64,000 nt of DNA from an uncultured Gemmatimonadaceae bacterium (GTDB lineage Bacteria > Gemmatimonadota > Gemmatimonadetes > Gemmatimonadales > Gemmatimonadaceae). The position numbers and the translations under genes are program-made. The stretch is from the NCBI GenBank assembly GCA_963817955.1, contig CAWFQK010000004.1, forward strand, positions 1,440,001 through 1,504,000, in the 5' to 3' direction. Numbering within the stretch: the stretch's first letter is position 1; the number at the start of each line of letters is the position of its first letter. A model generated the notes under the pieces. It had not been told where the DNA came from, did not search any database, and saw only the letters and a program-made list of their open reading frames with translations. This document shows, piece after piece, positions 865 to 59,031 of this stretch.

Positions 865-993
865 CGCGTCCAACCTCCTCGAGTCCTGCGATCTCACTCG
901 CTGCGCCGAAGTTGCTTTGTGTTGGACCTCGAGACCGTCAGCGAAGTTCCGCCTTCGTGTCCGAAGAGTCCAAGGAAGTGTCGGTGACCGTAC

Positions 994-1542
994 CTACGCC
1001 CTGACCTTGCGAATTCGTTCGCTGTATGCACGGGTGATGTCCATGGTCGTGACAATGCCGCACAAGCGACCGCAATCGATCACCAGGACGCCATGGGAGC
1101 CGGTATGGCGCATGAGAACGGCGGCTTCCTGCGCACTCGCCAGTGGCGAGAGGATGGGCGGACTCGAGCTCATCGCCTCTTCCACCGTATGCTCGGAGAG
1201 CATGTCCCACTCCGGCGTTTCGCTTGCGCGGAATCGCTCGACGACATCGCCACCCGCATCGTCCCACAGCTCAGTGAAGTACTCCACCGGAGGAAGCTCA
1301 TCCTCCATCGCATCTGGCTCATCCCAGACATCCGCGACGTCGCGCTCCGTTGGCACGCCGGGAGTTGCCGACGCAAACGCGATGAGCGACTGCGCCGAGA
1401 GCAATCCGACGACGCGATCCCCGTTCACGACGGGAAGCGCACTGACGCCGATGCTCGTGAGCAAATCCACGGCATCACGCAAAGACGCACCCGGGCCAAT
1501 CGTGACCGGAGCAGGGGTCATGAGATCGCCAAGCATCAGCAT
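994..1542 (-). CDS. CBS-domain pair protein with acidic insertion
   Basis: DLMTPAPVTI...ALPVVNGDRVVGLLS and EAMSSSPPIL...CGIVTTMDI CBS motifs flank a D/E-rich linker. Start moved to ATG 1542. Confidence 0.85.
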   Translation of the reverse strand: MLMLGDLMTPAPVTIGPGASLRDAVDLLTSIGVSALPVVNGDRVVGLLSAQSLIAFASATPGVPTERDVADVWDEPDAMEDELPPVEYFTELWDDAGGDVVERFRASETPEWDMLSEHTVEEAMSSSPPILSPLASAQEAAVLMRHTGSHGVLVIDCGRLCGIVTTMDITRAYSERIRKVRA

Positions 1543-1638
1543 ATTGCGAAGTTCAGAACTCACTGTCAGTTTAGGAGTCGGTGATCCCACGTCGGTATGT
1601 CAGGTATTCGCGGTCGGGAACAAGGAGGACGCCCGACG

Positions 1639-2643
1639 TCAGAAGAGTCGAACGCTGATGTATTTTTTCGGGTTTGTCTGGATATCGGCGATCAGTCCGC
1701 GCAATTGGACCAACAGCGAATCGGTCTGCCGGTACATCGACGGATTGTTGATGAACAGGCCCGCTGATCCCTGACCGCCATTGATCTTGGTGAGCACCGA
1801 GTCTCCGGTCGCCAGGAAGCTGTCGAGCCGGCCCTGCGATCGCGCGAACCGATCCGAGAGATCCCGCACCTGACTCGTCGTTCGCCGCAGCTCGCTTGCG
1901 GCAACCGAGAGATCCGCGACGATGCTGCGCATCTCTGGCGACGTCGTGGCAGAGTCGACCCGGTTCGCCGTGATTTCAACGGTGGCGGCAGCGCGGTTGA
2001 GCGACGCCACCGTCTTGCGAAGCTGACCCGAGAGCGTATCGAGATCCGACGCATGCACGCGCACGACGTTTGACATGTTGGATGACAACTCCGCCACATT
2101 GCGAATCGAGCTACGTAACTCGCGTGCCGCGGCTTCGTCGAACGCGACCTCGACCCGTCCAGCGACGCTCGCCATGTCGCCAGCGATCTGGCCGGCCACG
2201 GCCGTCAGTTTGCCAATGCCAGGCAGCGTAGCTCCAGGGAGCACGCGCTGGTCGCGACCTGGATCAGCGATGTCGCGCTGGACAGCAGCGTCACGAGGCA
2301 GTGCACCGCGCTCGATGACGGTCGCCTGCCAATCGCCGAACAGACTGGACTCGTTGATCAGCACCACGGGATCACCGGGAAGTTGTACTCTCGGATCGAG
2401 CTTCATACGGACGTTCACCCAGCCGTCCGGCGCGAGCTCGATCGCTTGGATGCGCCCGCCGATGACGCCGCGGATGACGACTGAGTTTCCCACGCGCGCA
2501 TTGCCGACGTCACGGAACTGCGCCACCACTTCACGCTGCCGCTGTCCGACATCCGCCTGTTTGATCCAGGCAAGGCTGCCGGCGAGCGCGAGCGCGACGA
2601 CGAGGACCACGATGCCGACCAACACGTCATGATTGCGCCTCAT
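1639..2643 (-). CDS. mlaD: MlaD/MCE-family lipid transport substrate-binding protein
   Basis: N-terminal TM, MCE domain (FRDVGNARVGNSVVIRGVIGGRI; NESSLFGD), helical tail ending GSAGLFINNPSMY...NPKKYISVRLF. Confidence 0.88.
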   Translation of the reverse strand: MRRNHDVLVGIVVLVVALALAGSLAWIKQADVGQRQREVVAQFRDVGNARVGNSVVIRGVIGGRIQAIELAPDGWVNVRMKLDPRVQLPGDPVVLINESSLFGDWQATVIERGALPRDAAVQRDIADPGRDQRVLPGATLPGIGKLTAVAGQIAGDMASVAGRVEVAFDEAAARELRSSIRNVAELSSNMSNVVRVHASDLDTLSGQLRKTVASLNRAAATVEITANRVDSATTSPEMRSIVADLSVAASELRRTTSQVRDLSDRFARSQGRLDSFLATGDSVLTKINGGQGSAGLFINNPSMYRQTDSLLVQLRGLIADIQTNPKKYISVRLF

Positions 2644-3488
2644 CGCGGCCCCTCACGTCCGAGCAGCCACGTCACTGCCCAGAACGCATCGAGCACGAGG
2701 ATGAGCACGGCTGAGATCACGACGGCAGACGTGGCCGCGCGTCCCACACCAACGGCACCGCCACGCGTGTCGAGCCCGCGCACGCACCCCACGAGCGTGA
2801 CAGCGAGACCGAAGCTCGCCGCCTTCACGAGTCCATACTGCACGTCGAACGTGAGGAAGAAGAGCCGCACGCCTTTCACGAACTCCGGCGTTGACAGATG
2901 CAGCAACAACACCGAGGCGACCCAGCCGGCGCCGATCCCTGCGATCATCGCCGCGGCGACGATGACCGGGAACATGACGACGCCGGCGACTACACGAGGC
3001 AATACGAGGTACGGCAGCGGATCGTAACCGAGCGTCTCGAGCGCGTCGATCTGCTCCGTGACCTTCATCGTTCCCAGCTCCGCGGCGATATTGGCGCCGA
3101 CACGGCCGGCGAGCGCGAGCCCGGTGAGCACCGGCGCCAGCTCCAGCGTGATCGTCTTCTCCACGAGCGTGCCAACGAAGTAGAGCGGCACCGCGCCCGT
3201 GAAGGAGTAGCTCGCAAGCAGCGCGAGCACGATACCGGTGAACAGCGCGATGTAGAGGGCGATGGGCATCGACGCGACCCCGAGCTTCCACGCTTGATCG
3301 AGCGATTGCGGCAGCCACGTCCGAATGTCACGTGCGGACGCAAAGGTCTCGGCGACGAATCTGGCGCGCCCGCCCAACGATGCGAGCAACTGCTGGGTCA
3401 CCGCACCGATACTGCCGACCGCGCGCACCAGAATGCGACCGGTGGAACGGGACGGACGTGAGTCGACGACCTGAGTGGAAATGGCCAT
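2640..3488 (-). CDS. mlaE: MlaE-family ABC permease
   Basis: ELAPVLTGLALAGRVGANIAAELGTMKVTEQIDALETLGYDP signature. 4-bp overlap with mlaD. Start ATG 3488. Confidence 0.93.
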   Translation of the reverse strand: MAISTQVVDSRPSRSTGRILVRAVGSIGAVTQQLLASLGGRARFVAETFASARDIRTWLPQSLDQAWKLGVASMPIALYIALFTGIVLALLASYSFTGAVPLYFVGTLVEKTITLELAPVLTGLALAGRVGANIAAELGTMKVTEQIDALETLGYDPLPYLVLPRVVAGVVMFPVIVAAAMIAGIGAGWVASVLLLHLSTPEFVKGVRLFFLTFDVQYGLVKAASFGLAVTLVGCVRGLDTRGGAVGVGRAATSAVVISAVLILVLDAFWAVTWLLGREGPR

Positions 3489-3739
3489 GCTGAGTCCCGG
3501 TGAACAGCTCGTGAATTTCAACGTAGATCGCGCACGAATGAATTCCGTCGGGGAAGCAAGCGCCGAACGCCAGTGATCGCCCGACGTCCTCTTCCCGTGA
3601 TCCGCGATCGCCACGGTGCTGGACGTTGGCAGTCCGGCCTGCGCGCGTGCGACAAAGGCGGACGACGCTCGGCAGAACGCCCGACGCCCCAGGGGCTCGC
3701 GGGCGGCCATGGTTCACTCGAGGCCACACAGGAGCGCGT

Positions 3740-4222: not shown

Positions 4223-4702
4223 TCATTTCACAGCGATCTCGATCTTCCGGCCTTTCGTTTTCGCCTCGGCCGTCTTGGGAAGATGCACCTTCAGCACTCC
4301 CTTCTCGAACTCAGCCGTGATCTTCGCGGCATCGACCGTCTTCGGCAGCGTGAATGACCGCTGGAACGATCCATAGGTCCGCTCGAAGAGATGGTACTTC
4401 TTTTCCTCCTCCTCCTTCTTCTCTTCGAACTTCTCACCGCGGAGCGTCAGAACGCCTTCCTCGACCGAGATATCGATGTCCTTGCGCTCCAGACCCGGCA
4501 ACTCCGCCGTGAGCGTCAGTTCGAGATCGGATTCGATGATGTCCGTCGGCGGCATCCAACCGATCGGCTGGGCGAAGAACTCGGTGTCGAATGGCGCACG
4601 GACATTTCCTTCGAACATCTTCCGCATCCGATTCTCGAGATCGTCGAGCATCGGGATGGGGCCGAGCACAGGAAATGTGCGGCGTGATTTGATGATTGCC
4701 AT
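4223..4702 (-). CDS. Hsp20/alpha-crystallin small heat shock protein
   Basis: AELPGL..DIDISVEEGVLTLRGEK...ERTYGSFQRSFTLP...AEFEKGVLKVHLPK, C-terminal IEI motif, GGAGG RBS. Confidence 0.96.
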   Translation of the reverse strand: MAIIKSRRTFPVLGPIPMLDDLENRMRKMFEGNVRAPFDTEFFAQPIGWMPPTDIIESDLELTLTAELPGLERKDIDISVEEGVLTLRGEKFEEKKEEEEKKYHLFERTYGSFQRSFTLPKTVDAAKITAEFEKGVLKVHLPKTAEAKTKGRKIEIAVK

Positions 4703-4962: not shown

Positions 4963-4999
4963 TCGGGTATGTCCCGTGGTTTGTTCAGCGCGTTCCCGA
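4963..4999. promoter_or_regulatory. Tandem putative NarL-family regulator boxes
   Basis: TCGGG-TATGT-CCCGT (4963) and TCAGC-GCGTT-CCCGA (4985), 22 bp apart, in the divergent hsp20/aeRF1-like intergenic region. Confidence 0.55.
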
Positions 5000-5081
5000 C
5001 GAGTCCGTCGTCACTGCCCTGACTGCCCACGTCGCCCCTGATGCGTACCATTTGGCACGGTACCGTTACCACAGGATGCCC

Positions 5082-6194
5082 ATGCTGCTGAACCGCGTGC
5101 AACTCGGCGAACTCGCGGATCACCTCCGCCAGACGCCGACTCTCAGCGCCTACATCGACACGTCGAGCGACGACCCCGCTGCCCGAGCTGCATGGCTTAC
5201 CGAGGCCCGCAATGCCATCGACGGCCTGCGGGAGAAACTCGTCAGCCGCCCGCACGCCGAGCAACTGGCGTTCGACCGCGCGGCGAGCCGGCTGGAAATG
5301 CGCTTGCGCGGTCTGCGCAACGCGCACCGAGCACCGAGCTGGATGCTCATTGTTGCCGATGGCGACGTGCATCATTTCGGCGCACTCCCGACGCGACTGA
5401 AGACCGAGCTGCACTGGCAACTCGGGCCACGGCTGGGGCCATACGCGCAGCTGCTCAAACAGGAGCGGCCCGTGATCGTCACCCTCATCGACGCGAAGTC
5501 GGTGACCTTGTATCGATACTCCGACGGCACCGTCCGTACGCTGACGACCAAGCATGCGCTCCGGCGCGGCGGACATGCTGATCATATGGGCGATACACCG
5601 CGCCAACATTTCCACGGCGGTACGCGCGGCACGACCGCACACGATGAAGCGGAACGCGCCCACCGCGTCGCAGCACAACGGCTCCTCTCGCGTGCCTCGG
5701 AGGCGATCGTGGCTGCGGCAATCGACGACGCATGGATTGTCATTGGCGGCGCACGCGAACTACCGGCGCAACTCCGCGAGTTGCTCCCATACGCCGCGCG
5801 CGAACGATCAATCGCCCTTCCCGATGCATTGCGCAAGCTGCCTCGCCAGGCCATCGCGCAGGTTGCTCTGCGTGGGGCCGAGTTGCTACGCGCCGAACGG
5901 GACCGTGTCGCGGTGGAGCAGCTACTCGAGCAAACAGGTGCTCACGCGAACGGCGTCGTTGGTGCGGTCGCGACGCTCGACGCGCTCGAGCACGGCGCGG
6001 CGTCCGAGTTGCTGCTCACACCGGGGTTCATCGACGCCCATGGCATGGAAGCTGACCGCGCCATTGATCACGCCCTTGACGATGGGACAGCAATTGAGGT
6101 CGTCACCGGAGCGGCGGCGGCCGATCTCGACGCACGCGGCGGCGGCGTCGGAGCGGTGCTGCGGTTTGCCATGCACGCACCGGCTACGAGCTAG
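5082..6194 (+). CDS. Bacterial aeRF1-like protein (baeRF family; Balon/Rv2629-like candidate)
   Basis: LSAYID N-terminus, WQLGPRLGPY motif, C-terminal eRF1-domain-3 end GGVGAVLRF, no GGQ. AGGA RBS before ATG 5082. Confidence 0.75.
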   Translation: MLLNRVQLGELADHLRQTPTLSAYIDTSSDDPAARAAWLTEARNAIDGLREKLVSRPHAEQLAFDRAASRLEMRLRGLRNAHRAPSWMLIVADGDVHHFGALPTRLKTELHWQLGPRLGPYAQLLKQERPVIVTLIDAKSVTLYRYSDGTVRTLTTKHALRRGGHADHMGDTPRQHFHGGTRGTTAHDEAERAHRVAAQRLLSRASEAIVAAAIDDAWIVIGGARELPAQLRELLPYAARERSIALPDALRKLPRQAIAQVALRGAELLRAERDRVAVEQLLEQTGAHANGVVGAVATLDALEHGAASELLLTPGFIDAHGMEADRAIDHALDDGTAIEVVTGAAAADLDARGGGVGAVLRFAMHAPATS

Positions 6195-6816
6195 TCGCAC
6201 GCCGCTGCAAGTGCTTCAGGCGTACATGCTCTTCGCGTTCTCGCTCCTCGAGCGTATGCGTCACGCCGGCGATCTGCCCGATCAGCCGCGGTTCAACGCG
6301 TTCACGCAGCAGACGTAGCTGCTGCGACGTGGCCGCCACGGCGTCGGCGAGCCGCGCCACACGGAGCTCGTTCGGCGCCGCAGCAATCAACAATTCGGCC
6401 AACGTCTCGTAGGCATCGGCGGCACGAACTAGTTCCCGCTCGGTACTGCCAGGTGGCGTTCCGCGCGCATCGAGTGTACGTCGCACGCGCGACGTCGGGC
6501 TCACGTCCGCCACGGGGACACCCCAGATCTGCGCCGGTGTCACGTCCACTTCGATGTTGCTTGCTGGGCGACCGACCGCGCGCAATGCGTCGACGCCGCA
6601 CACCGACACCGCATCCAACAGCGCTCGCGCCGCCTCGTTCACGTGCTGGCCAATCTCGGCCCGCGTATTGATCGCGGGACGGGCAAGACGAAACAGATGG
6701 CCAACCAGCGCTTGCCGCTTCCGGCTCACGGCGTCCGCGCCCTTGCGCACACGTTCGAGCTGCGCCCGCGCCCGCAGCAGATTGCTGCGCGTCGGTGTGA
6801 GCCGGGTCAGGCTCAT
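6184..6816 (-). CDS. ntpD: V/A-type ATP synthase subunit D
   Basis: PTRSNLLR...KGADAVSRKRQAL, IWGVPV, LEEREREEHVRLK. ATG 6816 overlaps the subunit B stop. Confidence 0.92.
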   Translation of the reverse strand: MSLTRLTPTRSNLLRARAQLERVRKGADAVSRKRQALVGHLFRLARPAINTRAEIGQHVNEAARALLDAVSVCGVDALRAVGRPASNIEVDVTPAQIWGVPVADVSPTSRVRRTLDARGTPPGSTERELVRAADAYETLAELLIAAAPNELRVARLADAVAATSQQLRLLRERVEPRLIGQIAGVTHTLEEREREEHVRLKHLQRRATSS

Positions 6817-8192
6817 TGTGCGCCACGCGTGTTGTGCGCTACCCAGGTTGTTGGCTTGATCCGGCTCATCTCCTCGCGCGGCATGGATTCCAGCATCCGC
6901 CACCCTGCTTGAAGCGTATCATCGACCGTGCGGCGCTCGTGTTGCGTGATGAACTCTCGCTCGAACCGTTCCGAAAAGTCGGCAGCGCGGCGATCGGCCT
7001 CTGTGAGACCAGCCATGCCAACGACGGCCGCCATCGTCACGGCCTCGCGTCCGCGCGCGTACAGAGCATAGAGCTGATCCGAAACCTCGCGATGCTCCGG
7101 TCGCGTGTGCCCCGCGCCAATGCCGGCGCCCATGAGGCGCGACAGCGACGGCAGGACGTCAATCGGGGGGTCGATGTTACGTCGGAACAGATCGCGGCTG
7201 AGCACGATTTGTCCTTCTGTGATATAGCCGGTGAGATCGGGAATCGGGTGCGTGATGTCGTCGTCCGGCAGTGTCACGACCGGGATTTGGGTGATCGAGC
7301 CGGGACAACCCTGGATGAGCCCCGCACGCTCGAACAGGCTGGCGAGGTCGGTATACATGTAGCCCGGATAGCCGCGGCGACCGGGCACCTCGTCGCGTGC
7401 CGCACCCATCTCACGCAATGCTTCGCAATAGTGCGTGATGTCAGCCATCACGACGAGCACGTGCATGCCACATTCGAATGCGAGATATTCGGCCTCGGTC
7501 AACGCCACGCGCGGCGCGAGCAGCCGCTCCACGGGAGGATCGCTGGCCTGATTGAGGTAGAGAATCATCCGCTCGGAGTGCACCGCGTCGCCAAGTCGCG
7601 TGAGGAAGCTCGCCGTCTCGCGCGCCGTGATGCCCATGCCGACGAAGATCACGGCATACTCTTGTTCGCCAGGCGCACGCGCCCAACCAACGATCCGCGC
7701 GGCGAGGTCGAGCGCCGGCAAGCCAGGTCCGGCGAAAATCGGCAGCTTCTGGCCGCGCACCAGCGTGGTGAGACCGTCAATCGCCGACATACCCGTTTCG
7801 ATGAAGTCGCTGGGACGTGCCCGGCGAGCGGGATTGATCGCCGCGCCGGTGATGGGCCGCACCGCCTCGCCGATTGGCGGCGGCATATCGTCCGCCGGTG
7901 CACCGCTGCCGCTCAGCACGCGACCGAGCAGATCGCGTCCCACCACGGTTTGCGACACTTGCCCGGTGAGCATGATGTCTGTTGCCGCCGGCACCATGCC
8001 GATCATCTCCTGTTGCACATGCACAACCGTCTCGCGCTCGGACGTGTCGATGACCTGTCCGCGCCGCTCGGGCTGTCCCGGCGCGACAATGCGCACCCAC
8101 TCACCCGCCGCGACGCGGCGGGTGTGCTCGATGACGAGCAGTTGGCCGACCGCCGAGGCCGCGCCACGATAGGTGCGCGCGATCGTTGTCAT
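6813..8192 (-). CDS. ntpB: V/A-type ATP synthase subunit B
   Basis: TLVRGQKLPIF, PGRRGYPGYMYTDLA, DDITHPIPDLTGYITEGQI, PPIDVLPSLSRLM. Start ATG 8192. Confidence 0.97.
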   Translation of the reverse strand: MTTIARTYRGAASAVGQLLVIEHTRRVAAGEWVRIVAPGQPERRGQVIDTSERETVVHVQQEMIGMVPAATDIMLTGQVSQTVVGRDLLGRVLSGSGAPADDMPPPIGEAVRPITGAAINPARRARPSDFIETGMSAIDGLTTLVRGQKLPIFAGPGLPALDLAARIVGWARAPGEQEYAVIFVGMGITARETASFLTRLGDAVHSERMILYLNQASDPPVERLLAPRVALTEAEYLAFECGMHVLVVMADITHYCEALREMGAARDEVPGRRGYPGYMYTDLASLFERAGLIQGCPGSITQIPVVTLPDDDITHPIPDLTGYITEGQIVLSRDLFRRNIDPPIDVLPSLSRLMGAGIGAGHTRPEHREVSDQLYALYARGREAVTMAAVVGMAGLTEADRRAADFSERFEREFITQHERRTVDDTLQAGWRMLESMPREEMSRIKPTTWVAHNTRGAQ

Positions 8193-9934
8193 GCGGCGAT
8201 CACCGGCACCATGCGATCGAGGACCGCATCCGCGTCCGCGGCACGCGCGTCCAGCTCGGATGCCGGTCCATCCCGCATGGCCGTGAGCGCGACGCGAAGG
8301 TCGAGCAACGGAACCGCCGCGAGCGGCTGTCCCTGCGCAATGACCGCCGACGCGAGTGTGAACGCGCGCGCGCAACGCACCACGAGCGCATATGTCTTGT
8401 GCGGCGAGGAGGCGACATCATTCGGATCATAGGCGCTCTGCCTGAGTACGACGTCGCGCACGATCTCCGCGACCTCGATCGTCAGCCGATCGAGGTCGGC
8501 GAGCGCGCTCAACCCGACGAGCCCCGCGATTTCGCGCAGTTCCTGGTCCCGCTGCAGGAGCACCGATAGCTCCGCGCGCGACGCCGTCCAGTCAGAGCCG
8601 CCTTCGCGCGTAAACCACGACGCCGTTGCCTCGACGTAGAGGCTATAGCTCGTGCCCCAGTCCACCGCCGGAAAGTGCCGCTGGTGTGCAAGGCCTGCGT
8701 CGAGCGCCCAGAGCGCGCCCGTCACGCGCAGCGCTGCCTGAGTGACGGGCTCCGAGAAATCACCTCCGGGCGGCGAGATGGCGCTCACGATCGTCACCGC
8801 TCCCGGGCGACGATCAGCGCCGCACGGGGTGACACGACCGGCACGTTCGAGGAATGTGCCGAAGCGCGCCGACAACGAGGTGGGATACCCTTCTTCGCCG
8901 GGCATCTCCTGAAGCCGAGAACTGATCTCGCGAAGCGCCTCCGCCCAGCGCGAGATGCTGTCGATCATCAACGCCACTCGATATCCCATATCGCGGTAGT
9001 ACTCCGCGATCGTGACGCCGAGGTAGATCGATGCTTCGCGAGCCGCGACGGGCATGTTCGATGTGTTGGCGATGAGCACCGCCCGACTCATGACGGAGCG
9101 GCCCGTCGCCGGGTGGAGAAGTTTTGGAAACTCCTGCACGACCTCCGCCATCTCGTTTCCACGCTCGCCGCAACCGACGTACACGACGAGATCCGCATCA
9201 CCATACTTGGCGAGTGAATGTTCGACGACCGTCTTTCCAGTGCCAAACCCACCAGGCACCGCCGCACTGCCTCCTTCCGCAACGGGAAAGAGGAAGTCGA
9301 AGACGCGCTGGCCGGTGATGAACGGCCGGTCCGGTTGCAGTCGACGGGCGAACGGCCGCGCAATGCGCAACGGCCATTGGTGCGCCAGCCGTAACGGCGT
9401 GCCGCTCATCAACGCGCCGATCTGATCATCGACAGTGAAGGCGCCGCTCTCCAGGGCAGCGATGGTTCCATCCACGCCGGGCGGGACGAGCACGTGATGG
9501 CTGAAATCCTCCTGTTCCAGGACTACTCCGAGTTCGTCTCCCGGACGAACGACGTCGCCTGGTTGGGCAGTAGCGGTGAACGACCAGCGCGCGGTTGCAT
9601 CGAGCGTCGGCGCGGCGACACCGGCGGGAATGAAATCGCCAACGGAAGCGGCAAGCCGGTCGAGCGGTCTGCCGACGCCGTCAAGCAGGGATCCGAGCAG
9701 CCCCGGTCCGAGCTGCGCACTGAGCGGAGATCCCGTGCTGACGACAGGCTCGCCGAGCTGCAGGCCCGTGGTGTCTTCGAAAACCTGGAGCATTGCGATA
9801 TCGCCGCGAAGACGAATGACCTCGCCAAGCAACCGCCGCTCGCCGACGTACACGAGCTCGTACAACGCCGCGTTGCGCATTGGCTGCGCCTCGACGATCG
9901 CGCCCGCGACGCGCACGACGGAGGGCGAGGTCAC
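8189..9934 (-). CDS. ntpA: V/A-type ATP synthase catalytic subunit A
   Basis: P-loop GGFGTGKT, VGCGERGNEM, NTSNMPVAAREAS, PPGGDFSEPVTQ. GTG 9934 overlaps the subunit F stop. Confidence 0.97.
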   Translation of the reverse strand: MTSPSVVRVAGAIVEAQPMRNAALYELVYVGERRLLGEVIRLRGDIAMLQVFEDTTGLQLGEPVVSTGSPLSAQLGPGLLGSLLDGVGRPLDRLAASVGDFIPAGVAAPTLDATARWSFTATAQPGDVVRPGDELGVVLEQEDFSHHVLVPPGVDGTIAALESGAFTVDDQIGALMSGTPLRLAHQWPLRIARPFARRLQPDRPFITGQRVFDFLFPVAEGGSAAVPGGFGTGKTVVEHSLAKYGDADLVVYVGCGERGNEMAEVVQEFPKLLHPATGRSVMSRAVLIANTSNMPVAAREASIYLGVTIAEYYRDMGYRVALMIDSISRWAEALREISSRLQEMPGEEGYPTSLSARFGTFLERAGRVTPCGADRRPGAVTIVSAISPPGGDFSEPVTQAALRVTGALWALDAGLAHQRHFPAVDWGTSYSLYVEATASWFTREGGSDWTASRAELSVLLQRDQELREIAGLVGLSALADLDRLTIEVAEIVRDVVLRQSAYDPNDVASSPHKTYALVVRCARAFTLASAVIAQGQPLAAVPLLDLRVALTAMRDGPASELDARAADADAVLDRMVPVIAA

Positions 9935-10263
9935 TGCAACCTCACACGGTAACCGATGGCGCGCTGCAGCAGATCGAGGATTTCGCTTGATCTGCCTTCG
10001 GGCTCCGCCGACCAATCGGGCGTGTTCAACGACAGGAGAATGGGCGTGGACTGCCGCGCAAGCTTGCGGCGGATGAACTCCGGTAGTGCCTGCACGACGG
10101 CCGGCTCTGCCACAACGATGCCGAGGTCCTCGTGCTGCAGGACCTCGGCGAGGCGAGCCACAGCCTCCTCGCGCGACTCGGTCTCGATAACCGGAATACC
10201 GGCGAGTGCAAAACCGGTAATGAGCGGGAATTCGCCAACCGCCAGCACCCGCATGCGGCTCAT
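9931..10263 (-). CDS. ntpF: V/A-type ATP synthase subunit F
   Basis: MSRMRVLAVGEFPLITGFALAGI...LLQRAIGYRVRL. Real start ATG 10263 lies inside the longer track ORF. Confidence 0.9.
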   Translation of the reverse strand: MSRMRVLAVGEFPLITGFALAGIPVIETESREEAVARLAEVLQHEDLGIVVAEPAVVQALPEFIRRKLARQSTPILLSLNTPDWSAEPEGRSSEILDLLQRAIGYRVRLQ

Positions 10264-11276: not shown

Positions 11277-11848
11277 CCGGCCTCCACCGCGCGACATACG
11301 TCGATCGCGATCTGCGGGCGATTGGCGTTCAGCCACGCGTCCACGGTGTCTTCGATGATCACGTGTCCGCCGTCTCCGATCAACGTGAAGCCGGGCGGCG
11401 CGTTCGGCGATTCAGTCTTCCGCCACTGCGGCGTACTATCGATCGCGGTTCCGGACGGTACACGGGCTTCGACGTCCGTCGTGGCGGCGAATGTCACAAG
11501 CTCGGCGAGCCGGCGATGCATCGTGTCGCCATTCGCGGCATCGGCAAACCGCGGTGCGAGGCGCCGCCGTGCGCGCGCGCATACGCGATCGACCAAGGCG
11601 TGCTGCGCCTGTAGGAGCGCACCGCGGGCTGCACGCCGGGCGTCGGCGATGGCGTTGGCTTGGCGACGCATGGTTTCCGCTTCGCACTCGGCCAACGCGG
11701 TCGCGGTGCGGATCTGCGCGCGCGCCTCGGCCGCGTGTGACATAGCCTGCGCCTGTGCGTCCGCGTCGCGACGCACCTGCTCGAGCTCCGCCTGTGCACG
11801 ATCGCCAAGTTCGGCCAGCAGGCGATCGAGGTGTGTATCGTCCGTCAC
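11273..11848 (-). CDS. ntpE: V/A-type ATP synthase subunit E
   Basis: N-terminal coiled coil, then GFTLIGDGGHVIIEDTVDAWL. Lies between K and C. Confidence 0.8.
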   Translation of the reverse strand: MTDDTHLDRLLAELGDRAQAELEQVRRDADAQAQAMSHAAEARAQIRTATALAECEAETMRRQANAIADARRAARGALLQAQHALVDRVCARARRRLAPRFADAANGDTMHRRLAELVTFAATTDVEARVPSGTAIDSTPQWRKTESPNAPPGFTLIGDGGHVIIEDTVDAWLNANRPQIAIDVCRAVEAG

Positions 11849-12073
11849 TCAGGCCCCTCCGCCCCGCAGCACGATCATGACGGCGACCACGAATCCAAGG
11901 ATGGCGACCGTCTCTGGAATGGCGATCATGATCACCACGGTGGTACTGATCTCCGGCTTCTCGGCGAGGGCGGCGGCGCTTGCCGCGCCGATGCGTGACT
12001 GCGCCCACGCAGTCGCCAACGCCGCCACACTCATGACGAGCGCGGCGCTGATCGGAACCCACAACACGGTCAT
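11849..12073 (-). CDS. ntpK: V/A-type ATP synthase proteolipid subunit K (single hairpin, 74 aa)
   Basis: AWAQSRIGAASAAALAEKPE...IAIPETVAILGFVVA with the conserved Glu. ATG 12073 overlaps the subunit I stop. Confidence 0.93.
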   Translation of the reverse strand: MTVLWVPISAALVMSVAALATAWAQSRIGAASAAALAEKPEISTTVVIMIAIPETVAILGFVVAVMIVLRGGGA

Positions 12074-14324: not shown

Positions 14325-14414
14325 GAACGGCAGTTTCGAGCACGCGTCGCGCACCCGGCGACGCTTACGTCTGATGCGCTCGTGAACGGTACGTTCGTGA
14401 GTATTGCGAGCCAC

Positions 14415-52659: not shown

Positions 52660-52833
52660 TCAATATGTCATCCCACGGCAACCTGTGCCCCATCGACTGA
52701 ATGCCGCAGGCCCGATGCGGCGCACCCGGCCCGCGAGCGGGCGCGTTCCGCCCCATTCGGCGATGTCCACCGTATCGCCCATTGCGATCCGCACCGCATC
52801 CGTCGTCAGGACGTCGGCGATGACCTCGATCAT
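52660..52833 (-). pseudogene. Fragment of a HlyD/membrane-fusion (efflux adaptor) gene
   Basis: IEVIADVLTTDAVRIAMGDTVDIAEWGGTRPLAGRVRRIGPAAFS resembles an internal beta-barrel segment of HlyD-family adaptors. Only 57 codons. Confidence 0.62.
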
Positions 52834-53735
52834 GTTGTGATGACAGGTGGCGGAACAACCAGCACGGGACATGGCCCCTCGTGCAAGACGCCAGTCAGGG
52901 TGCTGCCGAGCAACGCGGCGGCCAGCGCGCTGCTGCCGCGACGCCCGAGAACGATCATGTCCGCATCGATTGCCTTTGCCGTCTCCGCGATGACCTCGGC
53001 CGGCTTGCCATACGAGACTGCTGCCGCGACGTTCGCGCCCACCATACCGGCTGCCACGAGCTCGTTGAGCCACCGCACGCCATCGCGAGCCAGTTCGTCG
53101 CGAATCTCCTGCTCGGCCGCGGCATCCGTTCCCGCATGCGCGTATGACATCGAAGCGATGTGGCTATACACCGCGTTCGACAGCACATGGAGCAGCGTGA
53201 TGTCGGCGCCGAAATGCTGTGCCAGCTTCGATGCGGTGGCCAAGAGGGACGGCGTGATGCTCGCGTCTTCCACCGGGACCAGCAGCTTCCGAACGCGCCC
53301 AGGACGCGGTTTCGCCATGATCAGCACGGGCACCGCCGCATTGCGCACGAGGCGATCGGCGGTCGTGCCCAGCCAGCTGCCGCCGCCCTTTCGTTCACCA
53401 TGCTGGCCGACGACGATCACGTCGGCAGTCACATCGCGCGCCAACTCGCCGAGTACTTCGTACGGCGCGCCCACGCGTGTCTCCGTGCGGATCGGTGACG
53501 CACTGAGAAACGTCGTCACGTCGGCGAACTGGCTCGCGGCGTAGGTTTCGGCGGCGCCGATCATGTCGCTGCGCGACGGCAGCTTGGCTGCGGCGAACGT
53601 GGGCGTGTGCGGTACGTCGATCACATGCGCGAGAATCAACTCGGCATCAGGCGCGACGTACTGCGCAATCCACTTCGCCGCGTCGATTGCCGGCTCGCTG
53701 AAGTCCATTCCGATGAGCACCCGGTTCCATGTCAT
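52830..53735 (-). CDS. Universal stress protein, tandem USP domains
   Basis: VLIGMDFS...VGQHG...LGTTAD and LLVPVE...LGRRG...LGST...PCPVLVVP. ATG 53735. Confidence 0.92.
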   Translation of the reverse strand: MTWNRVLIGMDFSEPAIDAAKWIAQYVAPDAELILAHVIDVPHTPTFAAAKLPSRSDMIGAAETYAASQFADVTTFLSASPIRTETRVGAPYEVLGELARDVTADVIVVGQHGERKGGGSWLGTTADRLVRNAAVPVLIMAKPRPGRVRKLLVPVEDASITPSLLATASKLAQHFGADITLLHVLSNAVYSHIASMSYAHAGTDAAAEQEIRDELARDGVRWLNELVAAGMVGANVAAAVSYGKPAEVIAETAKAIDADMIVLGRRGSSALAAALLGSTLTGVLHEGPCPVLVVPPPVITT

Positions 53736-53869
53736 GGGCCTACCCTCGTTGATGGGTGAGGACGGCGGTGGCGGACGGGTCCATTGCCGGACGGCCCACA
53801 CGACCGCACCAGACCACGAACATGCGCGATGGCGCGCGGCGCGTCTGTCCGTGCTTCGGCGGCCTGCGG

Positions 53870-53884
53870 TCAGGGAAGCCCGGT
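53870..53884. promoter_or_regulatory. Putative regulator box upstream of USP
   Basis: TCAGG-GAAGC-CCGGT. Confidence 0.45.
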
Positions 53885-53917: not shown

Positions 53918-54373
53918 TCAGCCCCCGCTGGTCGCCATTCGGCCGGTGATCTCGTCGGCGAAGATGCGGAATACGCTTGTCCGGTGTGGCGTCGCGTCGC
54001 TGGCTGTCATGGCCTCAGCGTCGATTTCGCGCAGCAAGTCGAGCGCGCGTTCGTACGCCTCCCTATCCCTGTCTCCGCCACCTGGCTCGAGAAAATACAG
54101 CGTGCCGTGCGCCACGACGCTGCGCCAGTCGAAACGCCCCTCGATCTCGTCGACTTGGAACGCCACCCAGGGATGGTGCCGGACAGCAACGAGTTTGGTG
54201 CCTGGCGACGTGCGCCCGTAGATGCAGCCTTCGGCGAACACGTACGAGATCGGTTCCACATCCACACGGTCATGGAAGCTGAACGCCAGTCGTCCAATAT
54301 GATGTCGCTCCAGCAGCGCCACGCACTCGCCACGCGAGAGATCGCTGAACTCGGGTCGATTGGTGCGAGCCAT
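53918..54373 (-). CDS. Pyridoxamine 5'-phosphate oxidase-like flavin-binding protein
   Basis: LSRGECVALL..GRLA, GTKL, VAFQVDE...WRSVVAHG, ITGR. Confidence 0.9.
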   Translation of the reverse strand: MARTNRPEFSDLSRGECVALLERHHIGRLAFSFHDRVDVEPISYVFAEGCIYGRTSPGTKLVAVRHHPWVAFQVDEIEGRFDWRSVVAHGTLYFLEPGGGDRDREAYERALDLLREIDAEAMTASDATPHRTSVFRIFADEITGRMATSGG

Positions 54374-54385: not shown

Positions 54386-56218
54386 TCATATTGTGGACCG
54401 CGTCGCCGTCGGAATCGAAAACAAGAATGTCGCGCCCTGTCCGGGAATGCTCTCCAGCCAGATCGTGCCCCCATGCGCTTCGACCATCCCCTTGGCGATG
54501 GACAATCCAAGACCGGTACCACGGATGCGCGCCGCATCAGATGATTGCCAATATCGCTCGAACACCCGCATCTGATGTTCCGGCGCGACGCCAGGGCCAG
54601 TGTCGCGTACGCTGAACACCACCTGTCCGTCACGCGGCTCCGCGCCGATCGTGATCTGGCCGCCGCTGGGCGTGAACTTCAACGCGTTTCGCACGAGGTT
54701 CCCTAATACCTGCACGATCCGCGCGCTGTCGGCCATCACGAGCGGTAAGTTCGTCGGCAATCGCTGCGCAAGACTAACGCCGTGTTGCATCGCTTCCACT
54801 TCGAACATGTGCCACGTCTGCAGCACGAGTTGCGCCGGTTCACTCGGCCACGCTTCCACCGACAGACGCCCTTGCTCCAAGCTCGCTTCGTCGAGAAGAT
54901 CCTGAATCAAGCGGTTCGTCCACGCCGCTGACTCGCGAATCGTCGTCAACAATTCGTGGCGAGCCTGCTCGGAGGTCGGTGGGTTCTCGTCGAGTGCACG
55001 TGCGCACATGGAGATGGCAGTGATCGGATTGCGCAGGTCGTGCGACACGACACCAAGCACCTCTTCGCGTGCGCGGTTCGCGCGCTGCGCCACCGCATAG
55101 AGGCGCGCGTTCTCCAGCATCGTCGCGGCCGAGCCGGCGAACTTCTCGGCAAGGACGCGCGTTTCCGCCGACAGCGAACGCCGCGCGTTCACGGCGATCA
55201 ACGTCAACGCTCCAAGCATCTGGTCGCCGGCAACGAGCGGAACGATCAGGAGAGCGCGCGCGCCGAGCGCCGTCCACGCGGCAATCGCGCCAGCCTCTTC
55301 ATTGCCCTCGAGCCATGACGCGTCCACGGCCACGACCTGCTCGGCGCGACGGCGACGGATGACGTCAATGACGGGCGAGGGAGAATCCCACGAGAGCGGC
55401 GCAATGGCCAACTGCTGCATGGCCGCCGAGAGCGACTCACGATGCCGCCGCCCAACCATCCGTCGCAGGCCTCCGTTGCTCGTCACTACATCGACGAATG
55501 CCGCGTCGGCAAGGCGAGGCACGGCGAGATCGACCACCGCTTGCAGGGTGGCGTCGAAGTCAAGCGACTGTGCGAGGGCCGCCGATGTTTCGGCCATGAA
55601 CCGCTCGTCCTCCTCCGTGCGCTTGCGCTCCGTGACGTCACGGAGGACGACGGTGAACAGCATGCCCTGTTCGGTGACGAGTTTGGAGATCGACGCCTCG
55701 GCGGGGAACTCCGTCCCGTCGGCTCGCAAACCGAATATCTCGCGCCGTTCAGCCATGCGGCGTGCGCTCTCGGCCGCACGCGCGAAATGCTCCATGTGCA
55801 ATTCGTGCGCGGCGCGATACCGCGGCGGGAGCAGCAGCGCGAGATGGCGACCCACGACGTCCCCGGCCGCGTGGCCAAAAATCTGCTCGGCGCCATGGTT
55901 GAAGTGCACGACAGTCTGGTCGTGATCCACCGTAATGATGGCGTCGGCCGCGATGGCGAGAATGCCTGAGAACTTCGCCTCGGACGCGCGGAGCGCGCTG
56001 TCAGCACGCTCCTGTTCCGCCATCAAACGCTCGAACGAGTGCTGCCGCGCAAGCAGCAACACCAGCGTGGCCCCGACAATCAGGAGCGCGGCGAGCCGCA
56101 GCCAAGGCCGCGGGCCGCCTGACGAGAGCTCCCATAAGGTGATGCTGATCGGAACGAGTAGCGTTACGACCGAAAGCCACAGCGCGGAGCGAATTCTTTG
56201 GGAGTAGGCGACGGGCAT
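54386..56218 (-). CDS. Sensor histidine kinase, 2TM-PAS(FixL-like)-GAF-HisKA-HATPase
   Basis: PAS FNHGAEQIFG...LLPPRYRAAH...GLRADGTEFP, GAF, H-box SHDLRNP, NALKFT, DTGPG, GTGLGL. Confidence 0.93.
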   Translation of the reverse strand: MPVAYSQRIRSALWLSVVTLLVPISITLWELSSGGPRPWLRLAALLIVGATLVLLLARQHSFERLMAEQERADSALRASEAKFSGILAIAADAIITVDHDQTVVHFNHGAEQIFGHAAGDVVGRHLALLLPPRYRAAHELHMEHFARAAESARRMAERREIFGLRADGTEFPAEASISKLVTEQGMLFTVVLRDVTERKRTEEDERFMAETSAALAQSLDFDATLQAVVDLAVPRLADAAFVDVVTSNGGLRRMVGRRHRESLSAAMQQLAIAPLSWDSPSPVIDVIRRRRAEQVVAVDASWLEGNEEAGAIAAWTALGARALLIVPLVAGDQMLGALTLIAVNARRSLSAETRVLAEKFAGSAATMLENARLYAVAQRANRAREEVLGVVSHDLRNPITAISMCARALDENPPTSEQARHELLTTIRESAAWTNRLIQDLLDEASLEQGRLSVEAWPSEPAQLVLQTWHMFEVEAMQHGVSLAQRLPTNLPLVMADSARIVQVLGNLVRNALKFTPSGGQITIGAEPRDGQVVFSVRDTGPGVAPEHQMRVFERYWQSSDAARIRGTGLGLSIAKGMVEAHGGTIWLESIPGQGATFLFSIPTATRSTI

Positions 56219-56256: not shown

Positions 56257-56919
56257 TCAGACTTCGGCGAGGAGACCGAGCTTCAAGGCGAATTGAACAT
56301 AGTCCGAGCGGTGGGCCAATCCAAGCTTTTCCTGGATTCGCTGCTTGTAAGTATCAACCGTTTTTGGACTTATGAACAGCCGCTCGCCTATCTCCGGGGC
56401 CGAATAGCCCTGCGCCACCAAACGAAGTACGTCGCGCTCGCGCTGCGTCAGCTTATCGAAGCGCTCGCGCTCGCTCTGCGCGGGATCCTTCTTCGTGAGG
56501 TTCTTCGCGAGCACGCGCGCTGCCGCGGGACGGACGTAAACGTCGCCGTGGGCTACGGCACGCACGGCATCGACCAATTCGCGGTCTGCTGCGCTCTTCA
56601 CGAGGTAGCCGGCAGCACCGGCTTCCATCAGCGGTACCAGATAATCCTCTTCGGCATGCATCGTCAGAATGAGGACTCTGGCCGAAAGGCCTTTCTGAAC
56701 GATCTCCTTGGTCGCAGCGGTGCCGTCAACATCCGGCATCGAAAGATCCATAACAACGACATCCGGGTTGAATCGCTCCGCGAGCGCCACGGCTTCACGA
56801 CCGGTCTTCGCTTCTCCGATCACTTCAATGTCCTTCGCGACGCCAAGGACGGCTTTCAGTCCGGCGCGCACCACGGCGTGGTCATCGGCCAGCACGACTT
56901 GAATACGATCTCCTAACAT
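56257..56919 (-). CDS. NarL/NreC-family response regulator
   Basis: LADDH, VVMDLSMP, GYLVK, HTH LTQRE...ISPKTVDTYK. Confidence 0.96.
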   Translation of the reverse strand: MLGDRIQVVLADDHAVVRAGLKAVLGVAKDIEVIGEAKTGREAVALAERFNPDVVVMDLSMPDVDGTAATKEIVQKGLSARVLILTMHAEEDYLVPLMEAGAAGYLVKSAADRELVDAVRAVAHGDVYVRPAAARVLAKNLTKKDPAQSERERFDKLTQRERDVLRLVAQGYSAPEIGERLFISPKTVDTYKQRIQEKLGLAHRSDYVQFALKLGLLAEV

Positions 56920-56929: not shown

Positions 56930-58009
56930 CTATCGGTTGCGGTCCGGTGCCGGCGTCAATGGAATCGAGGCGACTACCGCGGTGCCGCCGCCTTCCGCCG
57001 TTCTGACTTCCAGCCAACCGTCGATGAGCGCAACGCGCTCGCGCATCGACAGGAGCCCCATGCCATGACGATCCCGTTCGACGCTCTCAAGGTCGAACCC
57101 GCGGCCATCATCGAGCACTTCGAGCCGCGCCAAGGTGGGGTCGACGGAAACGGTGACGTGGATATGCTGTGGCGCGGCATGTCGCACGGCGTTCCGTACT
57201 GCTTCCTGCGCTACACGGTAGAGCACCGCAGCGACCGCCTGCGGGAGTTCACCCGCCGCCGCTGCAGCGTTGACGTCCACGTCGATGCCAGTACCGTGCG
57301 ATGCGTCGCGCGACAGCTTGCGCAATGCGGCCACAAGGCCGAGATCGTCGAGAACACGAGGATGCACGGTTTGCGCCAGAGTCCGTACCTCCTCGGTAAG
57401 TTCTTCCGCCGCATCCCGCGCATCGGCTAGGCGCTTGGCGAGCACCGGGTCGGTCGAGTCTCGCGCGGCAGAAGAAATCTGCAACAACAGCGCTGCCAGA
57501 CGCTGCGCTGTCGAATCGTGCAGTTCGCGCGCTAACGCAGCGCGCTCACGGTCGCCAACCTCGATCACTTCCGTAGCCAGATTCCGCATGCGCGCGCGGT
57601 CCGAGGCCAGCCCATCGAGCAGAATATTGAACATCGCGCCGATCCGCAACACTTCGCGGTCAGCCACGTTCGATTGATCGACACGAGCGCCGAAGTCGCC
57701 GTGCCACACGCGCGATGCCGCATCCTCGAGATCGCGAATGGGCCTGAGGGCCACCAGCACGAGCAAGGAATGCAGCACAACCGAGCATGCCGCAGCCACG
57801 ATGCAAATGGTGGTGGTGTGCACCGACGACACAGCAAAAGCCACGAGCGTTGCCACGACGATCAAATTCGCGCCGACGAGCTTGGCAAGCAGCGGCACGC
57901 GTAGCGCAGCGAGACGCATGGCGCGCCTGGACGCGTTGGAGCGCGTCTCTCCGCGAAGCAGCGGTACGATCTGAGGCACGATCTCTGGCTTCAGAATCAC
58001 GAACGACAT
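56930..58009 (-). CDS. HisKA_3 (NarX/NreB-type) histidine kinase with TM hairpin and HAMP
   Basis: Two TMs, HAMP, ERAALARELHD, YRVAQEAVRN, DDGRGF, GMGL. Confidence 0.94.
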   Translation of the reverse strand: MSFVILKPEIVPQIVPLLRGETRSNASRRAMRLAALRVPLLAKLVGANLIVVATLVAFAVSSVHTTTICIVAAACSVVLHSLLVLVALRPIRDLEDAASRVWHGDFGARVDQSNVADREVLRIGAMFNILLDGLASDRARMRNLATEVIEVGDRERAALARELHDSTAQRLAALLLQISSAARDSTDPVLAKRLADARDAAEELTEEVRTLAQTVHPRVLDDLGLVAALRKLSRDASHGTGIDVDVNAAAAAGELPQAVAAVLYRVAQEAVRNAVRHAAPQHIHVTVSVDPTLARLEVLDDGRGFDLESVERDRHGMGLLSMRERVALIDGWLEVRTAEGGGTAVVASIPLTPAPDRNR

Positions 58010-58146
58010 GGCCCTGCCCGCGTGGAACGACGATCGACCTTGTCTCAGACCCGTGCCATCGCACGATCCGGCAAATGGCGCCGGTTTGCTAAGGGATCAT
58101 ATGATTGCACAACCCTTTGCTCTGTCGGGCGCTGGTGGAAAAGCCG

Positions 58147-58183
58147 ACGGGGAACCCCTGAGTATTTCTCAGGAATTCCCCGA
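58147..58183. promoter_or_regulatory. Tandem regulator boxes upstream of the two-component operon (possible autoregulation)
   Basis: ACGGG-GAACC-CCTGA (58147) and TCAGG-AATTC-CCCGA (58169), 22 bp apart, together a 13/15 inverted repeat. Confidence 0.68.
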
Positions 58184-58215
58184 CAAACCTTCCCTTCCTA
58201 CTGCTTACGGCCTGC

Positions 58216-58848
58216 TTACGGCTTGACGATCGCCGTTGCAACCGACCGACCACCAATCATCAATTCGAAGTTCACCTTGACTTCGTCACCAGTCTTCAAA
58301 CGTCCGAAGATCGCCGTGGGTGGCTGGATTCCAAAGTCGGTCATCTTGACTGGAATGCTGCCAATCGCCTTCACGCTGCCATCGGGCATCCGTGTGGCGA
58401 TCACGTCCATCGTCACCTCGTTCACCTTCCCAGCAATCGCGAGCTTGCCGATCGTGTGCAGCGTGAACGCATCCTTCGATTCGCCCGGCGCTGCCTCGAA
58501 TGTACCGAGGATGTAGCTGATTTCCGGCGAGCCATCGACTTTCAGCGCCTTGTAGACGTTGCCATCCATCCCGCCGTGGTCGCACTTCAGGCTCTTCACC
58601 GGAATCTTCACTTCCACTCGCTTCAACGTCTTGGGCGCGGTCGCGCCGAACTGGGCAATGGCGGCCTTGTCAACATCGACACTGGCGTCGAGAGTCGTGG
58701 CTTTGCAGCTCCAGGAGTGAAGGTTCGATGTACCGTCGATCCAGAGCTTGCTGTCAGCGGCAACTGCAATACGGGCAATATCTTGAGCGCGTGCCGTAGT
58801 CGCGACAAGGGCGAGAAGCGCGACAGTGGCTAATTGAGTTCTGGTCAT
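58216..58848 (-). CDS. YceI-family periplasmic lipid/polyisoprenoid-binding protein
   Basis: Signal peptide ARA-Q, IDGTSNLHSW, GKLAIAG, MTDFGIQPP...GDEVKVNF. GGAGG then ATG 58848. Confidence 0.9.
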   Translation of the reverse strand: MTRTQLATVALLALVATTARAQDIARIAVAADSKLWIDGTSNLHSWSCKATTLDASVDVDKAAIAQFGATAPKTLKRVEVKIPVKSLKCDHGGMDGNVYKALKVDGSPEISYILGTFEAAPGESKDAFTLHTIGKLAIAGKVNEVTMDVIATRMPDGSVKAIGSIPVKMTDFGIQPPTAIFGRLKTGDEVKVNFELMIGGRSVATAIVKP

Positions 58849-58970
58849 CCTTCCTCCGTCGAGAACGCGATGGCTGTCTGTGCCGGTCGGCACGCAGGTG
58901 GTCCATCGAACTGGAGGCAAGCTAGGTCTTGGCGAGAAGTGCTTCTGTCAGGAGGATGAATGAATGGCGG

Positions 58971-59031
58971 TAGGGACAATTCGGCTCCCTAGTAGCACAA
59001 TCACCGCCAATCGAAGTCAGGGATTCCCCGT
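58971..59031. promoter_or_regulatory. Putative regulator boxes upstream of the yceI-like gene
   Basis: TCAGG-GATTC-CCCGT (59017) and a TAGGG half-site (58971). Confidence 0.55.

Follow-up and report, generated by a model that had tools for sequence, protein, structure and literature searches.

The stretch of DNA analysed here (the window) is a 64-kb segment of the genome of an uncultured Gemmatimonadaceae bacterium and makes up 1.4% of that genome, which comprises 4.53 Mb in nine contigs. Pfam annotation revealed an island of stress and energy genes in the window, several of which are preceded by copies of a 17-base palindrome with the consensus GTCRGGGAWTCCCYGAC, a consensus derived from 74 distinct sites in the loci of relatives. 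We consider that this palindrome is probably the DNA operator of a NarL/FixJ-type response regulator encoded at 56260-56919. The genes and sites surrounding the regulator are as follows, in window coordinates.

53921-54373, minus strand: pyridoxamine-5'-phosphate-oxidase-like (PNPOx-like) gene (Pyridox_ox_2, 8.9e-21), the last gene of the regulator operon, syntenic in 6/6 relatives examined
54389-56218, minus strand: second kinase of the operon, with a membrane anchor, PAS, GAF, HisKA and HATPase_c (Pfam, hydropathy)
56260-56919, minus strand: response regulator of 220 aa, with receiver (REC) and GerE/LuxR-type helix-turn-helix (HTH) domains (Pfam Response_reg 7.8e-27, GerE 1.3e-18)
56933-58009, minus strand: histidine kinase with HisKA_3 and HATPase_c (Pfam, HisKA_3 1.3e-11), 13 bp upstream of the regulator and its putative cognate sensor
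58096-58101, minus strand: TATGAT, a putative -10-like hexamer 21 nt after the half-site that follows
58123-58129, minus strand: half-site CCCGACA, in phase with the 58147 site and 22 bp beyond it in the downstream direction; an alignment of 17 promoters shows its conservation among the closest relatives
58147-58161: second site of a tandem pair, 22 bp from 58169, 14.5 bits
58169-58183: distal site of this pair, which lies before the kinase-regulator operon and is conserved in relatives; the strongest site in the genome, 24.1 bits
58219-58920, minus strand: YceI-like gene
59017-59031: site upstream of the YceI-like gene, 17.1 bits

An earlier reading of the window (the original prediction) had described a recurring palindrome, TCRGG-N5-CCYKA, at 24 positions. 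From ten of its better sites, all in the window, we built a palindromic 23-column matrix, M0; a second matrix, MR, was derived from the 74 sites in relatives' loci and has the consensus CTGTCGGGGAATCCCCGACAG (18.6 bits). M0 owes nothing to the relatives' loci and is therefore the cleaner test. At 14 bits it matched 23 noncoding and 13 coding places in the whole genome, against means of 6.8 noncoding and 41.2 coding matches for 20 column-permuted palindromic control matrices. MR at 12 bits or more found 33 noncoding and 30 coding matches genome-wide; eight of the 33, and no coding ones, lie inside the window. As a string, TCRGG-N5-CCYKA has one exact match in the window (both strands counted), the palindrome at 58169-58183, and as written it is not significant (0.78 +/- 1.17 matches in shuffled sequence, with 29 of 100 shuffles equalling the observed count). 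With TCRGG-N5-CCYGA and at most one mismatch there are 21 matches versus 10.75 +/- 3.29 in shuffles, none of 100 reaching 21; at most two mismatches give 168 versus 131 +/- 10.8, again reached by 0/100 shuffles.

All sequences quoted in the original prediction lie where it had placed them, and the enrichment over background that it implied was borne out by shuffles, permuted matrices and the counts in relatives given below. The recurring palindrome is thus a real motif, but its occurrences had been overcounted about twofold. Scored with MR, seven of the 24 listed positions are strong, at 12 bits or more (14436, 14463, 21343, 38696, 58147, 58169 and 59017), and three are moderate (4963, 10.3 bits; 53870, 8.8 bits; 4985, 6.5 bits), so that about ten fit the motif. 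Four are weak, at 2.7-4.9 bits (3570, 15161, 34066 and 34088), although 34066/34088 are possible weak in-phase half-sites; the remaining ten (938, 960, 982, 3548, 34110, 37294, 37316, 38100, 50767 and 50789) score below 0 bits and resemble background.

The upstream regions of orthologous regulators provided a comparison between genomes. We collected 80 loci encoding orthologues with 71-95% identity, all from Gemmatimonadota, of which 70 have at least 1.5 kb of upstream DNA, and scanned 2.6 kb upstream of the regulator. M0 gave a site of at least 12 bits in 43 of the 70 loci, versus 4.5 after block shuffling. The corresponding MR counts, which are partly circular, are 58/70 loci versus 1.6 in shuffles and 85 sites versus 1.7. 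Measured from the regulator, the sites concentrate at two upstream distances: 1.1-1.5 kb, in front of the HisKA_3 kinase gene, and 2.0-2.4 kb, in front of the YceI-like gene; the second cluster is the place equivalent to 59017. In the 60-kb stretches of six relatives, all 14 sites of at least 15 bits lie no more than 7 kb from the regulator gene. Within the motif, the central A-W-T is among the best-conserved positions in MR. In more distant relatives the outer bases change from GTCR to GTAG around an unchanged core, GGGGAWTCCCC, and the variant TAGGGGAWTCCCCTA occurs in these relatives.

Might the palindromes be structural or selfish DNA or RNA elements, such as REP-like repeats or terminator hairpins, or chance matches in GC-rich sequence? 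REP-like palindromes and tandem arrays abound in the genome, there is a terminator-like match at 58148-58160, on the opposite strand from the genes, and about ten of the 24 listed positions are background-like. That terminator-like match, however, has the wrong strand, and matches of this kind are no more frequent than expected from shuffles. Watson-Crick symmetry between mirror-image columns does not exceed the expectation for independent halves (for columns 7/17, 44 versus 65.2 expected), and the A-W-T centre is conserved, the reverse of a hairpin loop. This absence of covariation together with the conserved centre fits a protein reading each half-site and makes an RNA hairpin unlikely. The sites are located upstream of genes, and at orthologous promoters they stay in place although the flanking sequence diverges; their enrichment survives both shuffling and matrix permutation. 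On the covariation, position and enrichment tests we rejected the structural or chance explanation for the core sites, and regard it as very improbable; the behaviour of the motif supports a protein operator.

Independent motif searches were affected by repeats and coding signal of the genome. Our own palindromic expectation-maximisation search of 'intergenic' DNA converged on a codon-periodic signal, because some of the gaps are unannotated genes, and was dropped, and exact dyad enumeration recovered REP-like repeats rather than the degenerate motif. A matrix iterated on the host genome, M1, drifted to an AT-rich centre and was used only for picking loci outside the window, not for any count. 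REP-like palindromes are abundant genome-wide (e.g., C4:1413370 and C6:111538), and their sequences are unrelated to the motif; noncoding/coding copies number 69/11 for ATCCT-N11-AGGAT, 68/1 for CTGCA-N7-TGCAG and 129/44 for CCGCC-N5-GGCGG. Noncoding tandem arrays with 21-bp or 17-bp units occur at C4:659172, C4:1204437, C4:767052 and C4:1120437, and a tandem unit of about 20 bp partly mimics the motif.

We observed that the sites are often spaced by two helical turns. Pairs of noncoding sites in the host peak at 22 bp (1578/1600, 4963/4985, 58147/58169 and C9:208769/208791), and counts at 17-20 bp in host noncoding DNA are due to unrelated tandem arrays. When 146 strong sites were pooled (32 from the host and 114 from relatives' loci) and partners of at least 4 bits were counted, the counts were 32 for an offset of 22 bp, 11 for 23 bp and 0-2 for most others; smaller peaks at 12, 14, 34, 36-37 and 44-46 bp are explained by related loci with arrays of three sites. 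When half-sites alone were scored, 59 out of 300 oriented contexts had a right half-site at +22/+23 and 26 had one at -22/-23, with nearly all other offsets at three or fewer. The two-helical-turn phasing is real and reaches degenerate partners. At the level of half-sites alone, genome-wide periodicity is swamped by the 17- and 21-bp tandem arrays, and half-site-only arrays were supported at three places only, namely 34064/34086, 58145/58167 and C9:208771/208793. The spacing histogram thus agrees with the 22-bp tandems proposed originally, as do the pairs 58147/58169, 4963/4985 and 1578/1600 and the loci of relatives. The sites 14436 and 14463 are 27 bp apart rather than 22, and 5008 follows 4985 at 23 bp.

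Which protein, then, binds the motif? The conserved sites before the operon of regulator 56260-56919 and its invariant recognition helix make this protein the best candidate. When conserved sites precede the operon that encodes a regulator, they usually mark the operator of that regulator. In 79 of the 80 orthologous loci the recognition helix is the same, ISPKTVDTYKQR, beside the conserved motif core, and in a Pfam search of the window the GerE HTH of the regulator was the sole DNA-binding domain found. The motif could instead be a real operator of another transcription factor, for example the hybrid kinase-REC-GerE protein encoded at C8:56151-59225 or a factor invisible to domain searches. 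The C8 protein is 43% identical to the regulator over REC-GerE, carries SPKTVETYRSR where the regulator has SPKTVDTYKQR and is encoded by a gene that a candidate site precedes, and association alone cannot tell such paralogues apart. Against this possibility, the strongest and best-conserved sites precede the operon of the stand-alone regulator (43-58 of 70 loci), these sites cluster within 7 kb of it in 6/6 relatives examined, and the conserved core contains no second DNA-binding domain. We therefore judge a different binder to be unlikely and regulator 56260-56919 to be the probable one. The original prediction had likewise named this regulator, and as a candidate, with the strongest pair before its own operon, it stands; by the tests run, the protein is an orthologue of neither NreC nor DosR.

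The regulator is best described, from its sequence, as an unclassified member of the NarL/FixJ family. It falls below every NCBIfam equivalog cut-off (best MctR, 167.5 versus 300 bits; NarL, 154 versus 250 bits). Its closest solved structures are VraR (146.9 bits), NarL and then DevR (3c3w, 113.8 bits), and its DNA-binding domain is about equidistant from those of LiaR, EvgA, EsrB, VraR and DosR (36-39 bits). Metagenomic homologues bear generic or automatic names only, some being labelled 'NreC'. A second paralogue of the regulator, with about 70-73% identity, occurs in several congeners (G005, G015, G019 and G020; e.g., L152-L155), where it lies 25-100 kb from the first and near the congeners' Hsp20 homologue.

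The HisKA_3 kinase has hydropathy windows at residues of about 33-57 and 60-74, corresponding to two close membrane helices, a weak HAMP match (E 0.011) and a LiaS-like match over residues 69-351 (84.8 bits versus a cut-off of 450). Pfam and hydropathy analysis showed no recognisable sensor domain in it, and its predicted layout is that of an intramembrane-sensing kinase. The second, PAS-GAF-HisKA kinase (54389-56218) has no regulator of matching type nearby.

The arrangement of the sites bears on whether the regulator activates or represses. TAnnnT is present at the position of the hexamer in all nine of the closest sequences, and in 16 of 44 non-redundant orthologous promoters it follows the last strong site at a distance of 53-54 bp from the centre of that site. 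If the hexamer at 58096-58101 is the -10 element, the sites would be centred near -87, -65 and -43. The regulator might, however, bind mainly as a repressor or roadblock rather than as a DevR-like activator. Neither 57950-59100 nor 14300-14560 yielded a promoter in a scan for the sigma-70 consensus, no more than 29-56 bp separate the upstream V-ATPase sites at 14436/14463 from the annotated start of the lead gene, and autoregulated repressors are common. On the other hand, most sites are 76-203 bp upstream of start codons, and the last element of the in-phase arrays is a weak half-site with TAnnnT about 21 nt beyond it, which is the class II activation geometry of DevR. We consider repression the less probable of the two modes, with a minor share of the likelihood.

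The other sites of the window, and the genes they precede, are the following.

997-1590, minus strand: CBS-domain gene
1600-1614: site upstream of the CBS-domain gene, 15.0 bits, with a partner at 1578 (6.4 bits) 22 bp away; absent from the original list
4226-4702, minus strand: Hsp20 gene
4963-5022: three in-phase weak or moderate sites between the Hsp20 gene and the open reading frame (ORF) at 5082 (4963, 10.3 bits; 4985, 6.5 bits; 5008), spaced 22 and 23 bp
5082-6194, plus strand: eRF1-like ORF, divergent from Hsp20 ('baeRF family 10', 26.3 bits, cut-off 27.1)
6187-14414, minus strand: complete V-type ATPase operon (Pfam)
14436-14477: two sites 27 bp apart before the V-ATPase lead gene, 17.3 and 18.6 bits
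21343-21357: site upstream of the gene that follows, 12.2 bits, with a CCGAC half-site 22 bp downstream
21493-22962, plus strand: multihaem cytochrome gene
38696-38710: site upstream of the NiFe hydrogenase small subunit gene, at the head of the cluster that follows, 13.6 bits
38781-48828, plus strand: NiFe hydrogenase and hyp maturation genes (hyd/hyp cluster; Pfam)
52833-53801, minus strand: universal stress protein (USP) gene
53870-53884: moderate site upstream of this USP gene, 8.8 bits

Altogether, eight of the 19 promoter regions scored in the window have a site of at least 8.8 bits, namely those of the regulator operon, YceI, the V-ATPase operon, the multihaem cytochrome, the NiFe hydrogenase, the USP, the CBS protein and the Hsp20/eRF1-like pair. 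By this count, between roughly one third and two fifths of the island's transcription units carry the motif, fewer than the 'most operons' claimed originally. Nor does the motif unite the island as one regulon, given that 11 of the 19 regions lack a credible site and that 25 of the 33 noncoding matches of at least 12 bits lie elsewhere in the genome.

Several of these sites are retained at orthologous targets. Counting sites of at least 8 bits, with the host's own locus included and a chance expectation of up to about 0.26 per 560-bp region, we found sites upstream of the hydrogenase at -165 to -203 in 5/6 loci, upstream of the multihaem cytochrome in 7/9 and upstream of the V-ATPase lead gene in 4/5. 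The gap equivalent to 53870 carries a 10.4-bit site in one relative, G020.

A number of points weigh against the interpretation of the motif as the operator of this regulator and of the regulator as an activator. First, the link between regulator and motif is one of association in sequence. Second, the 11 window promoter regions in which we found no credible site include those of ccm, the cytochrome bc-like operon, the 35751-37214 operon, LTXXQ, BON/CBS, AckA and USP 48960; for the lead gene of the cytochrome bc-like operon, both the host and the one relative that carries it have matches of no more than 2.7-5.0 bits. Third, conservation is poor for some targets: sites precede Hsp20 in 3/11 loci and the eRF1-like gene in 4/17, and BON has sites in 6/14 related loci and none in the host genome. 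Fourth, because there are 30 coding matches of at least 12 bits, a single score is no proof of function, and the split between coding and noncoding DNA (0.73 of 4.53 Mb being noncoding) comes from a crude gene caller of our own. Fifth, the MR counts are circular in part because that matrix was seeded by the window matrix and then scored on its own source loci, and the relatives are kin rather than independent samples, so that the spacing counts overstate the number of independent events. Finally, the -10 assignment, and hence the preference for activation over repression, is conjectural.

Compared with relatives over window positions 1-53800, the island is accessory and patchy. Among 30 congeners, the hydrogenase small subunit is carried by five, the multihaem cytochrome (21508-22959) by eight, Hsp20 by ten, the V-ATPase lead gene by four and the cytochrome bc-like lead gene by one. 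Synteny in 6/6 relatives examined is limited to the block consisting of YceI, kinase, regulator, kinase and PNPOx-like genes, and a USP gene follows the PNPOx-like gene in four of these six. The stress genes of the island comprise three USPs, two CBS-domain proteins, Hsp20 and a BON protein, all by Pfam, which also identified acetate kinase (AckA) and the PNPOx-like protein, and a full ccm system (ccmABCEFGH).

Some further observations concern these genes. The region 21493-37214 encodes at least seven multihaem c-type cytochromes, some with MtrC/MtrF-like domains, as well as a cytochrome b561, the cytochrome bc-like operon and a B12-binding radical SAM enzyme. Together with ccm, these genes look like an extracellular or periplasmic electron-transfer cluster. 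In three relatives (loci L157, L203 and L204), homologues of the multihaem cytochrome and of the BON protein have single in-frame TAG or TGA stops, which may represent pseudogenes, assembly errors or two genes. A paralogue of the eRF1-like ORF lies at C8:18539-19576, and 13 of the 30 congeners carry homologues.

Outside the window, the genes adjoining high-scoring noncoding MR sites were identified from the list made with the drifted M1 and are treated as candidate targets. They include two pyruvate:ferredoxin oxidoreductase genes, a multihaem cytochrome gene (with a 22-bp pair), a RidA-like gene, an OsmC gene, a PAS kinase/beta-eliminating lyase pair and a cold-shock protein/Ser-Thr kinase pair. 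A stand-alone receiver gene at C4:1090800-1091270 also has a candidate site upstream. Judged from the functions of these genes, the gene content inside and outside the window points to oxygen or energy limitation.

We compared this system with known two-component systems. In Mycobacterium tuberculosis, DevR uses helically phased tandem boxes at -42.5 and -63.5, with a conserved primary box and degenerate secondary boxes (PMC3177182); binding at the primary box cooperatively brings the regulator to the degenerate ones, and insertions of 5 or 15 bp abolish binding to the secondary box and sharply cut promoter activity. The Dev box half-site given there is G4G5G6A7C8T9 (Chauhan et al. 2011, PMC3177182). 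Our system resembles DevR/DosR in three respects. First, a NarL-family regulator is encoded with a HisKA_3 kinase. Second, the boxes are in tandem and in phase, at 21 bp for DevR and at 22-23 bp here, where 43 of 146 strong sites are partnered. Third, the gene content includes USPs, Hsp20, a CBS protein and a PNPOx-like protein. It differs in its motif, in which GGG and CCC triplets are separated by A-W-T only and the GGGACT half-site does not appear. It differs also in its regulator, which is no DevR orthologue (DevR ranks fifth among solved structures and does not figure in the top 25 NCBIfam models), and in its host phylum, Gemmatimonadota. DosS and DosT are soluble GAF-GAF haem kinases, whereas the HisKA_3 kinase here has two membrane helices and no GAF, and the second kinase (54389-56218), which does have PAS and GAF, contains HisKA, unlike the HisKA_3 type. 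As for DosR-type targets, the site before one USP gene is moderate (8.8 bits), those in the Hsp20 region are weak and poorly conserved, and none precedes the two other USP genes. The system is thus DevR/DosR-like in promoter architecture and partly in gene content, and fails on motif, regulator orthology and sensor type.

Staphylococcal NreBC is an oxygen-responsive system of the NarL family. The NreC site, TAGGG-N4-CCCTA, is like TAGGGGAWTCCCCTA except that the spacer is N4 rather than N5. NreC is a NarL-family regulator that is reported to bind a GC-rich palindrome and to activate anaerobic respiration genes (PMC8139620, PMC5694512), and its partner NreB is described as a cytoplasmic kinase with a PAS domain and an iron-sulfur cluster (PMC8139620). 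The HisKA_3 kinase here, in contrast, is embedded in the membrane and has no PAS domain by Pfam, and Pfam identified no nar or nir (nitrate or nitrite reductase) genes in the window. Identity with NreBC was rejected on these two grounds.

With LiaSR/VraSR, the pair shares VraR as the top structural homologue of its regulator (146.9 bits), a match to the LiaR DNA-binding domain (38.8 bits) and a kinase with two membrane helices, a short loop, a HAMP-like linker and HisKA_3 (LiaS match, 84.8 bits); the operon is autoregulated in those systems and predicted to be so here. The scores are nevertheless far under the family cut-offs (LiaS, 84.8 versus 450), Pfam shows no LiaF-like neighbour, the neighbours being YceI-like and PNPOx-like genes, and the predicted targets are energy-metabolism and stress genes instead of cell-envelope genes. 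The kinase-regulator pair therefore resembles LiaSR/VraSR in architecture only. Among solved structures, Escherichia coli EvgA has the most similar recognition helix (ISNKTVSTYKSRLMEKL versus ISPKTVDTYKQRIQEKL), with a match of just 38 bits over 63 residues, and EvgA has another type of partner kinase and another biology. The EvgA operator is AT-rich, unlike the motif described here.

From these comparisons we propose a mechanism of phosphorylation-dependent, cooperative, class II-type activation; it builds on the observed spacing and conservation, while binding, cooperativity, the sign of regulation and the signal are inferred. The membrane-embedded HisKA_3 kinase, which has no extracytoplasmic domain, would sense a membrane-linked signal, probably the loss of respiratory energy or oxygen, and phosphorylate the regulator. 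A dimer of the regulator, as the palindromic form of the site and the GerE-type HTH suggest, would bind the well-conserved primary site, and binding would then extend cooperatively, as in DevR, across sites spaced by the observed 22-23 bp. The last, weak site would lie near -43 as counted from the -10-like hexamer, and regulator bound there would activate RNA polymerase. The proposed targets in the window are the regulator operon itself (autoregulation), the YceI-like gene, the V-ATPase, the multihaem cytochrome, the NiFe hydrogenase/hyp genes, the USP gene and the CBS gene, with the Hsp20/eRF1-like pair as a less certain target.

What we describe is an uncharacterised NarL-family two-component regulon with phased tandem operators in a little-studied phylum; the kind of system is a familiar one. 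Our literature searches, which covered texts other than supplementary files, returned nothing on this motif with a bacterial regulator or on Gemmatimonadota regulons. The operator, the candidate regulator and the list of targets provide a testable handle on the control of hydrogenase, multihaem cytochromes and V-type ATPase, the motif may be used for predicting regulon members in hundreds of uncultured genomes, and the system would represent a case of convergence with DevR promoter architecture through a different motif and a different sensor.

More tentatively, we speculate that Gemmatimonadaceae built a DosR-like survival programme independently of the actinobacteria, a reading that goes well beyond the assignment of the operator and that we hold as a possibility rather than an expectation. 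The intramembrane kinase would read membrane energisation or the redox state of quinones instead of haem-bound oxygen, and the phased operators would turn on hydrogen oxidation, multihaem cytochromes serving alternative electron transfer, the V-type ATPase, pyruvate:ferredoxin oxidoreductase and stress proteins. The conserved core (YceI, the two kinases, the regulator and the PNPOx-like protein) would recruit different accessory operons in each species. Gemmatimonadota are widespread in soil. If the speculation is correct, such a programme would enable these bacteria, which are abundant in soil, to survive in microsites that are anoxic or poor in energy.

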